64,000 bases of DNA from an uncultured Bacilli bacterium (GCA_934096605.1 CAKOMI010000002.1:789-64788), one strand, 5' to 3'; shown: positions 54,902-59,412, counted from the stretch's first letter. Translations and numbers: made by a program. Notes: generated by a model not told the origin, from the letters alone.

Positions 54902-54979
54902 ATGCTTTTTCTAAGATTTTTGTTAGTTATGATCGTGTTTTTTTTAGTTTCCATACTATTCTTAACATTCCCTCTATAA
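54902..54979 (+). CDS. 25-aa hydrophobic peptide ORF, degenerate copy (no own RBS; starts 3 nt after the asnB stop)
   Basis: MLFLRFLLVMIVFFLVSILFLTFPL is homologous to the C-terminal 27 aa of the peptide at 55633..55737, with the stop at the same relative position. Confidence 0.25.
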   Translation: MLFLRFLLVMIVFFLVSILFLTFPL

Positions 54980-54982
54980 TTA

Positions 54983-55087
54983 AAAAAAACGTCTAAACAA
55001 AGTGTTTAGACGCCCAAAATTTAATCGAGGACGTCTAGCTCAACAAAAACTAGAGGCTCTCTTTTTATTATATGAGATGTACTCTCT
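54983..55087 (-). ncRNA. candidate antisense sRNA, copy 1
   Basis: Minus-strand extended -10 tgttaatat (plus 55094-55102). Minus-strand terminator is hairpin 54989-55012 followed by a U-run (plus A-run 54982-88). Confidence 0.2.
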
Positions 55088-55244
55088 AAATACATATTAA
55101 CATAAAAATACTTGAAATAAAAGAATAAATTTTTTAGGCGTTACTAATAGTAATCTTATGTATTTCTTTGCTTTACTAATAACAAATTGAAGGTGTCTTT
55201 TTTTTGTTGGCTTTATAATAAAATGAGACACTATTAGTCAGTTC

Positions 55245-55516
55245 AAGTGGTGTTTTTGATGGAAAATTTGACTATTAAAAATCCTCTATAGATTCATATT
55301 TAACAATTGATGAATATTTTTGGACCATAACACCAATAGTTATTAAAACCCTTTTGGGTACTCTTCTAGTGCTTCACATATATTTGTTTTTTATCTATAT
55401 GGCATGATGATAATACTAGCTATTCACTTGGCTTAAGACCTGTTATAAATTTAAAGAGTACTTTGAAACTTACGGGTGATGGTACTAATAATAATCCTTA
55501 TATTCCAAGTTTATAA
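55245..55516 (+). pseudogene. decayed 3' remnant of a third lectin-tailed surface-protein paralog
   Basis: Fragments in two frames: ..DEYFWTITP.. (compare DYLWTMTS and GQWTLSP) and ..HDDNTSYSLGLRPVINLKSTLKLTGDGTNNNPYIPSL* (compare NAVRPVGYL....GDGSSGNPYTLSN*). Confidence 0.6.
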
Positions 55517-55632
55517 AAAAAATAATAAAAATTGTTAAAAAGTCCTTGGTTCGACAAAATACTCAGATTAGTTGTTATATAATAGGTCGCGAACCTTTAG
55601 TTGTTAGACGTCCTCTAGATAGGAGGATTAGT

Positions 55633-55737
55633 GTGAAAAAGGATACAGAAATTTGTATGCTTCAGCTACTAATATTTTTACTGGTTATAATCGTGTTAAT
55701 TTTAGTTTTCAAACTTTTTTTAACTCCCTTTCTATAA
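55633..55737 (+). CDS. 34-aa hydrophobic peptide, candidate type I toxin
   Basis: GTG start 6 nt after AGGAGG (55621-26). Peptide (M)KKDTEICMLQLLIFLLVIIVLILVFKLFLTPFL has a charged N-terminus plus a single TM. An upstream cctc could pair with the SD (cctc-tagata-ggagg). Confidence 0.4.
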   Translation: MKKDTEICMLQLLIFLLVIIVLILVFKLFLTPFL

Positions 55738-55743
55738 CATAAT

Positions 55744-55848
55744 AAAAAACGTCTAAACAAAGTGTTTAGACGTCCAAACCTAAATTCGAGAACGTCTAGC
55801 TCAGAAAAACTAGAGGTTCTCTTTTTTATTATATGAAATATACTCACT
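55744..55848 (-). ncRNA. candidate antisense sRNA (antitoxin) convergent with the peptide gene
   Basis: Minus-strand extended -10 tgttaatat (plus 55855-63), conserved in both repeat copies. The minus-strand terminator is hairpin 55749-55773 followed by a U-run (plus a44-a49). It would be complementary to the peptide mRNA 3' UTR, including its terminator. Confidence 0.3.
55788..55827 (+). terminator. intrinsic terminator of the peptide gene
   Basis: gagaac-g-tctag / ctaga-g-gttctc stem with a 10-nt loop, followed by tttttt. Confidence 0.5.
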
Positions 55849-55992
55849 ACATACATATTAACATGAAAATGCTTAAAATAAAAGAGTAAATTTTGAGGTT
55901 ACTAAAAATATTTTTACGTATTTCTTTGTTTTACTAATAACAAATTGTAGGTGTCTTTTTGCTCGTTGTGCTATAATATAATTGTGATTGAT

Positions 55993-58362
55993 ATGAAAAA
56001 GAAAGAAACTAATGAATTAAAAGGATTAACAGAAAAAGAAGTTGAAGAAAGAATAGCTTTGGGACTTGTTAATTATGATGATGGTCCAAAAACTAAAACT
56101 ATTAAAGAAATAATTTTATCTAATATTTTAACTTACTTTAATTTTTTAAACATGGCTCTTGGGGCTTCCGTTTTTATTGCGGGAGTTTTAGATGGACAAG
56201 CCTTGATGGGACTAAAAAATTGCTTATTTATGGGTGTAATTATTATTAATTCTATTATTAGTATTATAGAGGAGATTATATCAAAAAAAATAATTGATAA
56301 ATTATCTATGTTAAATGAATCAAAAATTGATATTATAAGAGATGGGGATGTTGTATCTTTGTCATTAGACGAATTAGTTATGGGTGATATTACATTATTA
56401 AAAAGTGGTCATCAAGTAGTTGCAGATTCACTTATATTAGATGGTAGCGTTGAGGTAAATGAATCACTTTTAACTGGAGAACCTGATTCTATCTTAAAAA
56501 AAGAAGGAGATATGGTTTTATCAGGTAGTTTTATTGTGAGTGGCAGTGCTTATGCTCGTGTTACTCACGTTGGTAAAGATAACTATATTTCGGTAATATC
56601 AGCTGAGGCTAAATACGAAAGCAAAGTTCATTCAGTAATTATGGATTCATTTGAAAGTCTTTTGAAAATATTATCATTTTTAATTATTCCTATTGGTATT
56701 ATTATGTTCTTTAGTCAACTTGCTGCGACCGGTGGGTCAGTTACTGGTTCTATTTTTTATACAGTAGCGGCTTTAATTGGGATGATTCCAGAAGGTCTTG
56801 TTTTACTTACTAGTTCAGTTATGGCTGTAAGTGTTATTAGGCTTTCTAAATACAAAGTTTTAGTACAACAATTATATTGTATTGAAACACTTGCCCGAGT
56901 TGACGTTATATGTCTTGATAAAACAGGGACACTTACGATGGGTAAGATGCAAGTTCATGATATATTACCAAGTAAACCATATTCTAAAGAAGAGATGGCA
57001 AATATTTTAAGTATTTATGGTAGTCTTTCTGGTGATGAAAATGCCACGATTAAGGCTATTAGAGAGAAGTTTGAAAATATAATAGAAAGTCATAAAGAAG
57101 ATGAATTACCTTTTTCTTCGGAAAGAAAATTCTCAGGAATCAAAGTTCAAGATATGGGGTCAGTTTATCTAGGAGCACCAGAGTTTTTATTAAAAAAAGA
57201 TTATTCTAAATATGAAGATATTTTAAAAGACAAGACTTTAGATTATCGAGTACTCGTTATTGCTAAAAACAATGAACCCTTAAGTAAAAATCCTACTAAT
57301 TTAGAAGTTATTGGGTTTATTTTCTTAGAAGATATTATAAGAGAAAATGCTTCATCTACACTTGATTATTTGAAAAGCCAAGGTGTTTTAATTAAAATAA
57401 TTTCTGGTGATAATGCTAAAACTGTTGAGGGAATTGCGAGAAGATGTGGACTAAATAATTTAAATAGCGTTAATACTGATACTTTAAGTGATGAAGAATT
57501 AGTTTCAGTGGTAGATAAAGTAAATGTCTTTGGAAGGGTAACACCTAAACAAAAAAAGTTAATTGTTAGTACTTTACAAAGTAGTGGTAAATGTGTTGCA
57601 ATGACTGGTGATGGCGTGAATGATGTTTTAGCTTTAAAACAATCTGATTGTGCTATATCTGTTGCAAGTGGTAGTGAAGCGGCAAGAAACGTATCTAAGC
57701 TTGTTTTATTAAATGATGATTTTGGGTCTATTCCTTATATTTTAAAGGAAGGCAGAAGAACAATTAATAATATTGAAAGATCAGCCTCTCTTTTATTAGT
57801 TAAGACTATTTATACTATTTTACTTATTTTATTTAGTGTTATTATTTCTTCTAAATATTTCTTTATTCCTATCCAACTTACTCTTATTACAACTTTTACT
57901 ATTGGTACTCCTTCATTTATTTTGGCACTTGAACCTAATACTGATTTAGTAAAAGGTAAGTTTTTACTTAAAGTCGTTTCTAGAGCCTTACCTACTAGCT
58001 TGACAGTTTTATTTGACGTTATTCTTGTCACATGTTTTACTATGGCTTTCAATCTATCTTATGAAATGCAAAGTTCTTTAAGCGTTTATTTAACGGCTAT
58101 AACTGGTCTTATTTATCTTTACAAAATATGTAAACCATTTACAATTATTCGTGGGACATTATTTACTGTTATGTTAGTAGGTTTCTTATTTTGTATAACT
58201 CGTGAATACGCATTTTTTAACTTGATAAAATTAAATCCTACTAGTATTTTAATTATATTTGTTTTAGCTCTTGATTCTTTATATGTATATAAAAGATTAA
58301 ACTATCTTATTACTAAAGCTTTTCATAAATTAGATCCAACGATTGAAATAGAAACTATTTAG
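55993..58362 (+). CDS. cation-translocating P-type ATPase
   Basis: TGE (LTGEPD), phosphorylation site DKTGTLT, hinge TGDGVNDVLALK, ~10 TMs. ATG 55993 is downstream of a tgcTATAAT -10 element (55969-77); the track start 55951 would lie upstream of it. Confidence 0.9.
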   Translation: MKKKETNELKGLTEKEVEERIALGLVNYDDGPKTKTIKEIILSNILTYFNFLNMALGASVFIAGVLDGQALMGLKNCLFMGVIIINSIISIIEEIISKKIIDKLSMLNESKIDIIRDGDVVSLSLDELVMGDITLLKSGHQVVADSLILDGSVEVNESLLTGEPDSILKKEGDMVLSGSFIVSGSAYARVTHVGKDNYISVISAEAKYESKVHSVIMDSFESLLKILSFLIIPIGIIMFFSQLAATGGSVTGSIFYTVAALIGMIPEGLVLLTSSVMAVSVIRLSKYKVLVQQLYCIETLARVDVICLDKTGTLTMGKMQVHDILPSKPYSKEEMANILSIYGSLSGDENATIKAIREKFENIIESHKEDELPFSSERKFSGIKVQDMGSVYLGAPEFLLKKDYSKYEDILKDKTLDYRVLVIAKNNEPLSKNPTNLEVIGFIFLEDIIRENASSTLDYLKSQGVLIKIISGDNAKTVEGIARRCGLNNLNSVNTDTLSDEELVSVVDKVNVFGRVTPKQKKLIVSTLQSSGKCVAMTGDGVNDVLALKQSDCAISVASGSEAARNVSKLVLLNDDFGSIPYILKEGRRTINNIERSASLLLVKTIYTILLILFSVIISSKYFFIPIQLTLITTFTIGTPSFILALEPNTDLVKGKFLLKVVSRALPTSLTVLFDVILVTCFTMAFNLSYEMQSSLSVYLTAITGLIYLYKICKPFTIIRGTLFTVMLVGFLFCITREYAFFNLIKLNPTSILIIFVLALDSLYVYKRLNYLITKAFHKLDPTIEIETI

Positions 58363-58421
58363 TTAAAAGCCCATGCAAAATTATGTGTTTATCCTATACT
58401 ACTTTTGAAGGGAGCATTAGT

Positions 58422-58862
58422 ATGTTATTTGATGACACAAATTTTAATATGGGCTTTTTTGAAATTCCTGGTAGTGATTTTACAAAAGAATTACGAGCTA
58501 GTAATTTATTAAGTCCTAAAGAAGGGTTTTTAAGAGGTAATTTATTTAAAAATGAATATGAGCCTTTTGATAATTTAACTTATTATAAGTTGGAACCAAC
58601 TAGTGAAAAAGAAGCATTGTTATTTGAAATTATGGCTTTATCTTTTGCTGTAAATGATTTAAATCTTTATTTAGATTTACGACCAAATGATAAGGAAGCA
58701 TATGATTATTTTAAAGAGTTAATTCATGATAAAAATGAGTTAGAAGAAAAATATATTAATATGTATGGACCACTTACTTTATGTGATGATGTTGGTACTA
58801 GTTATAAGTGGAGTGATAATCCTTGGCCTTGGGAGAATATGGGAGGTAGTAACTATGTTTAA
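58422..58862 (+). CDS. cotJB: spore coat protein CotJB with N-terminal CotJA-like extension (apparent fusion)
   Basis: The C-terminal part ..LLFEIMALSFAVNDLNLYLDLRPNDKEA..Y......L...Y...YGPL.......W....PWPWE is the CotJB signature. The N-terminal ..LLSPKEGFLRGNLFKNEYEPF resembles the CotJA motif (sp.eAl..GTlFp.L..Py). Confidence 0.7.
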   Translation: MLFDDTNFNMGFFEIPGSDFTKELRASNLLSPKEGFLRGNLFKNEYEPFDNLTYYKLEPTSEKEALLFEIMALSFAVNDLNLYLDLRPNDKEAYDYFKELIHDKNELEEKYINMYGPLTLCDDVGTSYKWSDNPWPWENMGGSNYV

Positions 58863-59412
58863 ATATGTTAAACACTTAAACTATCCCGTTAATATTAAAA
58901 ATAAAGATTTAAAAATGGCTAAGTATTTACTTACACAGTATGGTGGGGCCAATGGTGAACTTGGGGCGGCTTTAAGATATTTTAGTCAAAAGTTTACTAT
59001 GCCAGATGAAAAAGGACGGGCACTTTTAAATGATATTGCAACTGAAGAATTTGGCCATTGTGAAATGATTTGTACAATGATTTATCAGCTTACTAAAGAC
59101 GCAACTATAGAAGAATTAGAAAGAGAAGGATTGTCTTCTATGTACACGGAGCATGGTAAAGGTATATATCCTGCAAATTCTTTTGGGGATGCTTTTACAG
59201 CTAGTTATTTTGCTGTAACAGGAGACGTGATAGCCGATTTATCAGAAGATATGGCGGCTGAGCAAAAGGCAAGGGCAACTTATGAGAATTTAATTAAGTT
59301 AACTAATGACGTCGATTTAATAGGTGTCTTATTATTCTTAAGACAAAGAGAAATAGTTCACTTTAATCGGTTTAAAGAGTTATATGATTATTATAAAAAA
59401 TTAGGATATTAA
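58855..59412 (+). CDS. cotJC: spore coat protein CotJC (manganese-catalase/ferritin-like)
   Basis: MFKYVKHLNYPVNIKNKDLKMAKYLLTQYGGANGELGAALRYFSQ.., EEFGH and a second E..H-type motif. ATG 58855 follows gggagg and overlaps the cotJB stop. Confidence 0.9.
   Translation: MFKYVKHLNYPVNIKNKDLKMAKYLLTQYGGANGELGAALRYFSQKFTMPDEKGRALLNDIATEEFGHCEMICTMIYQLTKDATIEELEREGLSSMYTEHGKGIYPANSFGDAFTASYFAVTGDVIADLSEDMAAEQKARATYENLIKLTNDVDLIGVLLFLRQREIVHFNRFKELYDYYKKLGY

Follow-up and report, generated by a model that had tools for sequence, protein, structure and literature searches.

What is encoded between positions 55573 and 55863 of a 64,000-nt stretch of DNA from an uncultured Bacilli bacterium (GCA_934096605.1, CAKOMI010000002.1:789-64788; this whole stretch is hereafter called the window), where a short hydrophobic reading frame on one strand faces a promoter on the other? 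A first-pass annotation had read the locus as a candidate type I toxin–antitoxin pair, where a small membrane peptide is held in check by an antisense RNA, and had offered a small regulator of the adjacent P-type ATPase as the alternative. All elements of that annotation were found where it had placed them, and together they are far more than chance would bring into one such interval. We conclude, with a probability of roughly three in four (0.74), that the locus belongs, as a complete member, to a family of type I toxin–antitoxin-like modules that is lineage-specific and has not been described before. From the mRNA to the antisense RNA, the module is made up of the following elements.

55573-55583, plus strand: promoter of the peptide mRNA, an extended −10 box TGTTATATAAT identified in the sequence, with a predicted start at ~55589-55591.
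55590-55615, plus strand: 5′ leader 'clamp' element CGAACCTTTAGTTGTTAGACGTCCTC, from folds, duplex energies and a compensatory change in copy C14b.
55612-55615 and 55621-55626, plus strand: CCTC and the Shine–Dalgarno (SD) sequence AGGAGG, respectively; the former is an anti-SD, and the two form an SD-sequestering hairpin.
55633-55737, plus strand: open reading frame (ORF) of the putative toxin peptide, GTG start, 34 aa, (M)KKDTEICMLQLLIFLLVIIVLILVFKLFLTPFL, from sequence, paralogues and substitution pattern.
55788-55830, plus strand: 3′ element, with hairpin 55788-55821 and T-run 55822-55827; mRNA terminator and partner of the leader clamp, from folds and covariation.
55740-55850, minus strand: predicted antisense small RNA (sRNA) of ~108 nt, the putative antitoxin, from its fold and covariance models R1 and R2.
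55855-55863, minus strand: sRNA promoter, an extended −10 box TGTTAATAT (complement of the plus strand), whose register is kept in 154 aligned copies.
55833-55847, minus strand: sRNA 5′ hairpin GUGAG-UAUAU-UUCAU, outside the mRNA and covarying across genera.
55747-55775, minus strand: sRNA intrinsic terminator, a 13-bp stem with a U-run from 55746 downward, from a terminator scan.

Starting from the plus strand, the predicted mRNA extends from ~55590 to ~55830, a length of ~240 nt, and its fold is more stable than that of dinucleotide shuffles (z = −6.3). Our folds agree with the annotation that hairpin 55788-55821 and its T-run end this transcript. The SD is separated by a 6-nt spacer from the GTG at 55633, which opens a frame of 34 codons closed by a TAA at 55735-55737. 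The start is placed at 55633 because paralogues alternate between ATG, GTG and TTG at that position, behind a conserved SD; a longer ORF of 63 aa from a TTG at 55546 is ruled out by the same paralogues. As had been described, the peptide joins a charged head, here basic (KKD-E), to a single and very hydrophobic helix, with a mean hydropathy (GRAVY) of 1.92. The predicted mRNA and the peptide both fall within the range of type I systems, in which toxin mRNAs measure 150–400 nt and encode hydrophobic peptides of 20–60 aa (PMC8594479).

On the minus strand, the sRNA runs from the 5′ hairpin through an A-rich linker into a middle hairpin and closes with the terminator, and its fold is likewise more stable than that of dinucleotide shuffles (z = −6.1). 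The middle hairpin is the complement of the 3′ hairpin element of the mRNA (55788-55830). Hairpin 55747-55775, which also sits within the mRNA 3′ untranslated region (UTR), follows an A-run, and the scan calls it an intrinsic terminator solely on the minus strand, which is the polarity that the annotation had given it. The 5′ hairpin of the window copy pairs through G·U, and does so on the minus-strand reading only. The TGTTAATAT box of the sRNA promoter, present as claimed, is in register in 23 copies from the window genome and its nearest relative, G013, and in 131 copies from other genomes; in its general form, TGnTAnnAT, it is in register in every aligned copy. The annotation had also predicted an RNA of ~105 nt fully complementary to the mRNA 3′ UTR. 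Its length is close to the ~108 nt predicted here, and the perfectly complementary overlap does cover the whole 3′ UTR of the mRNA. This overlap is ~90 nt long, and the remainder of the claim has to be revised, as the first ~20 nt of the sRNA, with the 5′ hairpin, fall beyond the mRNA terminator. At the level of sequence, the minus strand thus carries what a type I antisense RNA gene would have: a conserved promoter, a covarying structure, a terminator and a 3′ UTR overlap.

Covariation of the hairpins in homologous loci was the check that the annotation had proposed. Alignment A1 and model R1 were built from the 23 copies of the window genome and G013, and R2 is a broader covariance model. 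Across 97 distinct sRNA sequences, compensatory changes occur in 28 of the 29 pairs; 92% of cells are paired, as opposed to 71% in shuffled alignments and 28–45% when the partners are slid, and cells in which both partners have changed number 544, against 140 ± 11 in shuffles. A 33-sequence alignment served as a smaller covariation set beside these 97 sequences. In other genera, all 11 pairs of terminator hairpin 55747-55775 are compensatory. A structure-blind alignment of 31 sequences, made with MAFFT and folded with RNAalifold, recovers the middle hairpin and the terminator, with compensatory changes in 17 of 17 pairs. The strand that bears the sRNA is favoured because, in the sRNA orientation, G·U cells outnumber C·A cells by 73 to 32. 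By these comparisons, the predicted sRNA is a real, structured RNA family.

The partner ORF was followed through 98 sRNA copies from named metagenome-assembled genomes (MAGs), with random windows of the same loci as controls. A convergent, SD-preceded hydrophobic ORF of 18–45 codons faces 79 of the 98 copies, a conservation that the annotation had also asked to be examined, and occurs in 2.5% of the random windows; its stop codon lies −3 to +10 nt from the sRNA 3′ end in 74 of 98 copies, versus 0.5% of random windows. In addition to the peptides of the host genome, further recurring classes of 27 aa (MNKKDFLILSLVIIIFLLLFLLFIVLI), 30 aa (MKTKTFIIKVLKLIAIILFLLIIMIVVIKK) and 25 aa (MTKREISQFIIILLLFLVVILLLLK) are seen, and GRAVY is between 1.9 and 2.5 in all classes. 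Nucleotide differences are most frequent at the third codon position, followed by the first and then the second, and synonymous single-base changes are far above their neutral share (1053 versus 779 in class 1). Judged by these substitution patterns, the partner ORF is a real gene under coding constraint.

The host MAG is small (1.28 Mb, 28% G+C, 81 contigs) and rich in copies of the module, with ~15 found by BLAST and 16 sRNA genes found by an nhmmer profile; adding the decayed copy C28, which falls below the profile, gives 17 loci. The relative G013 has at least 10 copies. In alignments, three peptide subtypes stand behind one conserved leader and 3′ region: subtype A, the 34-aa peptide of the window copy, is shared by C13, three copies on C14 and C17; subtype B1 (MSKKDLLIAFLILLIFLLVGLLYAVII) is found on C62; and subtype B2 (MTKKDFLIIILILLIFLLVGLLYKTI) on C27 and C29. 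Nine copies have intact peptide genes, and in five the ORF is visibly damaged, by 5′ truncation (C2a), frameshift (C16), premature stop (C33), internal deletion (C59) or general decay (C28). Among the other partial copies, C12, a class-2 remnant, has kept the ORF and lost the leader, C13b, an sRNA remnant, has no ORF, and a contig end interrupts C41. All damaged or partial copies except C28 keep a recognisable sRNA gene, and no peptide gene without an sRNA gene was found among the host-genome copies. This asymmetry, 9 intact peptide genes versus 16 recognisable sRNA genes, is apparent from sequence decay, and loss of the peptide gene with retention of the sRNA gene is what addiction logic predicts.

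The mRNA itself appears to be built for silence. In 79 family loci, a TGnTATAAT promoter ends 6–8 nt 5′ of the conserved start of the leader, and a −35 box of the TTG type usually precedes it by ~17 nt. The annotation's suggestion that CCTC, which we place 5 nt 5′ of AGGAGG, can sequester the SD is borne out by the local fold of the window copy, in which the probability that the SD is unpaired is 0.01, and by paralogues in which anti-SD and SD covary (CCCC with GGGG in C17, CCTT with AAGG in C27). Across the family, the median probability is 0.056, compared with 0.44 for 250 ordinary genes of the window genome (p = 1.5e-18). A second interaction, absent from the annotation, emerges from the plus-strand fold: the leader, 55590-55615, pairs with both arms of 3′ hairpin 55788-55821. 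The mean energy of the leader–3′ element duplex is −33.4 kcal/mol for cognate partners, −17.0 kcal/mol for non-cognate partners and −12.5 ± 3.2 kcal/mol for shuffled leaders, and the leader prefers its own partner at nearly every locus. In copy C14b, a C-to-A change in the leader is balanced by a G-to-T change in the 3′ arm, and, of 37 mRNAs modelled, 34 have their first 12 nt paired with the last 40 nt at a probability of ~0.9. The 5′ leader and the 3′ terminator element co-evolve. With the sRNA complementary to the 3′ element, the leader and the sRNA's middle hairpin are of one sense, and leader and sRNA must therefore compete for one site.

From this architecture, we infer that both strands are transcribed, that the peptide is toxic and that the sRNA neutralises it through an RNase pathway. 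The extended −10 box upstream of the leader would give rise to the ~240-nt mRNA and the 34-aa peptide, presumably a membrane-active toxin, and the second extended −10 box, on the opposite strand, to the ~108-nt sRNA. The mRNA would silence itself, with its SD locked by CCUC and the first ~26 nt of the leader clamping the 3′ terminator hairpin, so that the full-length transcript would be closed, SD-occluded and stable. The sRNA may then contact the 3′ UTR through complementary hairpin loops and extend this contact into a duplex of ~90 bp, displacing the leader from the 3′ element. RNase III, the gene for which is present in the host genome (213 bits; cut-off, 166), would cut the duplex and remove the protective terminator, leaving the mRNA to exonucleases; in the window's genus, CCUC, once freed, would also occlude the SD more tightly. 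Peptide synthesis would be confined to times when the sRNA is in short supply.

The competition between leader and sRNA may mean more than this. On a view that we advance tentatively, with more doubt than conviction, the 5′ leader acts as a mimic of the antitoxin, which would set the module apart as a type I design of its own. When the sRNA is absent, the leader would clamp the ends of the mRNA and turn it into a nuclease-resistant, stored transcript; the sRNA would pry the clamp open and expose both ends to RNases, and in the window's genus the released anti-SD CCUC would shut the SD. As a whole, the module is best placed within a known kind of system, as a new family whose leader–antitoxin competition is possibly a new feature.

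Within the GTDB family of the host genome, 142 of 301 genomes, spread over 109 of 214 genera, gave full-length matches to model R1, usually with several copies per genome and often in tandem. Model R2 matches 22 of 400 genomes sampled across the class, all 22 of them in that same GTDB family; no R2 match was found in other families of the class among these 400. A scan of all prokaryotes, with one genome per species, for the promoter-plus-linker pattern yielded gut MAGs, with records titled uncultured Bacilli, Tenericutes or Mollicutes bacterium or Candidatus Coprosoma, from rabbit, human, ruminant and chicken gut. R2 confirmed 77 of 80 pattern loci that were fetched, and one more in a later check. 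A lone match in Bacillus sp. among genome contigs and 16 matches in viral contigs were not confirmed by R2 and are set down to chance, and distant-mode BLAST gave no match in plasmid and phage collections. At least 8 divergent copies are found per ~1.1-Mb genome.

Tandem arrays with a period of ~335–420 nt were seen in other genera (G126:C3:184239-185083, L069:1087-1633, L066:1501-1967 and G304:C18:390-1563). Many copies lie at contig ends, and because of this the module family probably breaks short-read assemblies.

The type I reading, with a 3′ overlap as in txpA/RatA or bsrG/SR4, is favoured by every comparative test available, because the module is multicopy, its sRNA covaries, its ORF is constrained, its SD is sequestered, its 5′ and 3′ ends interact and its two genes decay unequally. 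Several results weigh against it or against parts of it. Alignments A2 and A3 were fitted to the model structure, which inflates their pair counts, and the structure-blind alignment of 31 sequences did not recover the 5′ hairpin. In alignment A1, within the window's genus, wobble pairs of the terminator hairpin are slightly more frequent on the mRNA strand than on the sRNA strand. Blocking the 3′ UTR in silico lowers the probability of an unpaired SD from 0.23 to 0.01 in the window copy, but across the family the mean moves only from 0.19 for the full-length mRNA to 0.17. A family-wide switch in which sRNA binding closes the SD is therefore rejected; the shift is limited to the window's genus and a few other loci, and in that genus such a switch is a local possibility suggested by the models. 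Finally, none of the described toxin or antitoxin families was found to resemble the module in sequence, such that homology gives no support. In Rfam, neither the window region nor 10 divergent loci had a match at gathering score, with best scores of 24 bits against 56 for ctRNA_pT181 (window region) and 24 against 57 for RsmY (divergent loci). Eight representative peptides reached no family cut-off in Pfam and NCBIfam (Fst, Hok, Ldr, Ibs, TisB and others), the best toxin-family score being 12 bits for HokA against a cut-off of 89, and our literature search found no paper linking these bacteria or peptide sequences to type I systems.

A plain single-pass helix is common to many harmless small membrane proteins, and the window copy sits in the spacer before a P-type ATPase gene, 255 nt upstream of it, a spacer that is occupied in G013 as well. 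From these facts one could argue for a small non-toxic membrane protein under antisense control, of which the KdpF/MgtR-like ATPase regulator of the annotation is an example, in place of a toxin–antitoxin pair. We consider this unlikely. Only 1 of the 17 loci adjoins an ATPase gene, there with two adjacent copies, one of them truncated, and the others lie in unrelated contexts; the syntenic site in G013 has a different peptide subtype; and the module has a promoter and terminator of its own, with a peptide that matches no Pfam family. It is the peptide genes that decay and the sRNA genes that persist, the extreme SD occlusion and the 5′–3′ clamp are hallmarks of toxin mRNAs (PMC6733600), and so many divergent copies in a 1.1-Mb genome are not expected of a housekeeping peptide. 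The position upstream of the ATPase, together with strong structure and a terminator, would also suit a structured 5′ leader of the ATPase gene, riboswitch- or attenuator-like, but a TGCTATAAT box belonging to that gene lies downstream of the terminator, the element is found again at 16 further loci of unrelated context, none of the leader families in Rfam matches it, and a leader would leave the conserved ORF and the antisense promoter without a role. We give this explanation next to no weight, and copy distribution and synteny lead us to reject both of the readings that tie the module to the ATPase, as regulator and as leader.

Multiple copies at many different sites, often at contig ends or in tandem, might instead point to a non-coding repeat or a miniature mobile cassette, in which the hairpins would be structural or terminators and the ORF incidental. 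This is very improbable, given that 81% of copies have the ORF, compared with 2.5% of random sites, that the ORF's start, SD, length and stop position are fixed and its substitutions of coding type, and that two conserved promoters are held in register. The repeat analysis of the window showed neither terminal inverted repeats nor a transposase, and mobility would in any case be compatible with a toxin–antitoxin role.

Around the toxin–antitoxin-like module, the window contains remnants of a second copy and several related features.

54902-54979, plus strand: remnant of a second peptide ORF, 25 aa, 5′-truncated and without leader, SD or charged head (copy C2a).
54982-55102, minus strand: orphan sRNA gene of the truncated copy, with promoter (55094-55102), both hairpins and terminator (54987-55015) intact.
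55240-55517, plus strand: C-terminal pseudogene remnant (...GDGTNNNPYIPSL, then a stop) of a ~455-aa paralogous membrane-anchored protein family, with 9 stops in translation.
55891-55982, plus strand: repeat that lies upstream of the P-type ATPase gene and bears that gene's own TGCTATAAT box; the ATPase ATG is at 55993.

The truncated module (54902-55102) begins directly after the asnB stop codon. Direct repeats, 54911-55224 and 55669-55982, have a spacing of 758–761 nt and an identity of 75–89%. The orphan sRNA gene, matched by nhmmer at C2:55770-55896 (window 54982-55108), is 83–95% identical to the sRNA gene of the full copy in the repeat blocks that cover it, and an sRNA transcribed from it could, judging by this likeness, cross-protect. 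Behind the truncated module, 55133-55224 is a 79%-identical copy of the ATPase upstream region, and therefore the duplication unit extended past the module. The pseudogene remnant that sits between the two copies belongs to the ~455-aa family, which points to recombination between modules as the source of the second copy. Members of that family have an N-terminal membrane anchor and a conserved ...GDGT.NNPY(I/V)PSL C-terminus, reached no family cut-off in Pfam or NCBIfam, and, as intact genes, precede or alternate with subtype-A modules (C13:71-3244, C14:27469-30645 and C17:6869-8290).

In G013, the spacer between asnB and the ATPase gene (L034:1404-1939) holds a single module with a B2 peptide, and the flanking proteins are nearly the same as in the host (AsnB 97% identical, ATPase 95% identical). 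Since a B2 module occupies the syntenic spacer, the site appears to be old and its occupant exchanged, which implies, on present sequence evidence, that module copies have been replaced or gene-converted there. Modules, which often lie between paralogous surface-protein genes, could act as recombination sites, an idea that fits because different toxin subtypes occupy the same asnB–ATPase spacer in two species. B2-type modules (G000 C29 and C27; G013 L034 and L036) have an extra insert of ~40 nt between the stop codon and the first 3′ hairpin, which contains TTCCTCC, a possible second, downstream anti-SD. Elsewhere in the window, at 58383-59412, are two ORFs that, from their translations, we take to resemble the spore-coat proteins CotJB and CotJC (manganese-catalase-like), in a genome of only ~1.3 Mb.

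Type I systems are known mainly from cultured Proteobacteria and Firmicutes. If the type I reading is true, the module would represent a large new family confined to one clade of uncultured gut Bacilli with small genomes, to be set beside the 24 type I families of T1TAdb (PMC8594479). It is among the most repeated sequences of these genomes and lacks any annotation there; it accounts for many assembly breaks and 'empty' intergenic repeats, and the covariance model and peptide classes can be used to annotate these MAGs. The RNA pair is compact (~240 and ~108 nt), and its three-way pairing of leader, 3′ element and sRNA is open to testing by compensatory mutation. Should the leader indeed mimic the antitoxin, a self-locked mRNA would here come under antisense RNA control by a new route.

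Among known systems, bsrG/SR4 comes closest to the module. As with bsrG/SR4 of the Bacillus subtilis prophage SPβ (BsrE-G-H/as-Bsr) and txpA/RatA, the genes are convergent, the antisense RNA lies on the 3′ side and the peptide is hydrophobic (PMC8594479). The bsrG mRNA is ~294 nt long and encodes a 38-aa peptide, and SR4, ~180 nt long, complements the mRNA 3′ end; the two RNAs first meet at the terminator loop of SR4, decay is RNase III-dependent, and the bsrG SD lies in a double-stranded region that SR4 binding tightens (PMC3834814). Such tightening is also predicted here for the window's genus. Both RNAs of the module are shorter than those of bsrG/SR4 and txpA/RatA, with peptides of 25–34 aa, and the sRNA reaches at most the last codons of the ORF. 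Unlike bsrG/SR4, the module is chromosomal, with many and often tandem copies, and is not carried on a prophage. A further difference from both systems is that the mRNA leader pairs with the 3′ element targeted by the sRNA. We know of no report of such pairing in bsrG or txpA.

Fst/RNAII (par of pAD1) and SprA1/SprA1as share with the module the convergence of the genes, the 3′ overlap and the small hydrophobic peptide; both are Gram-positive systems that overlap at the terminators and encode peptides of ~30 aa (PMC8594479, PMC3834814). The pairing that matters functionally is found not in this overlap but at the 5′ region of their mRNAs (PMC8594479), whereas here the leader is of the same sense as the sRNA and pairs with the mRNA's own 3′ element. 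The closed transcript has its counterpart in hok/Sok and aapA/IsoA: full-length hok and aapA mRNAs are stable and translationally inert by virtue of 5′–3′ closure and an occluded SD (PMC6733600), and the mRNA described here is likewise predicted to be end-paired and SD-occluded. Like the module, aapA/IsoA occurs several times on the chromosome. Both hok and aapA belong to Gram-negative hosts, and neither system shows homology to the module. Their antitoxins bind in the 5′ part of the mRNA, which 3′ trimming activates, whereas in the module described here the antitoxin would target the 3′ partner of the clamp.

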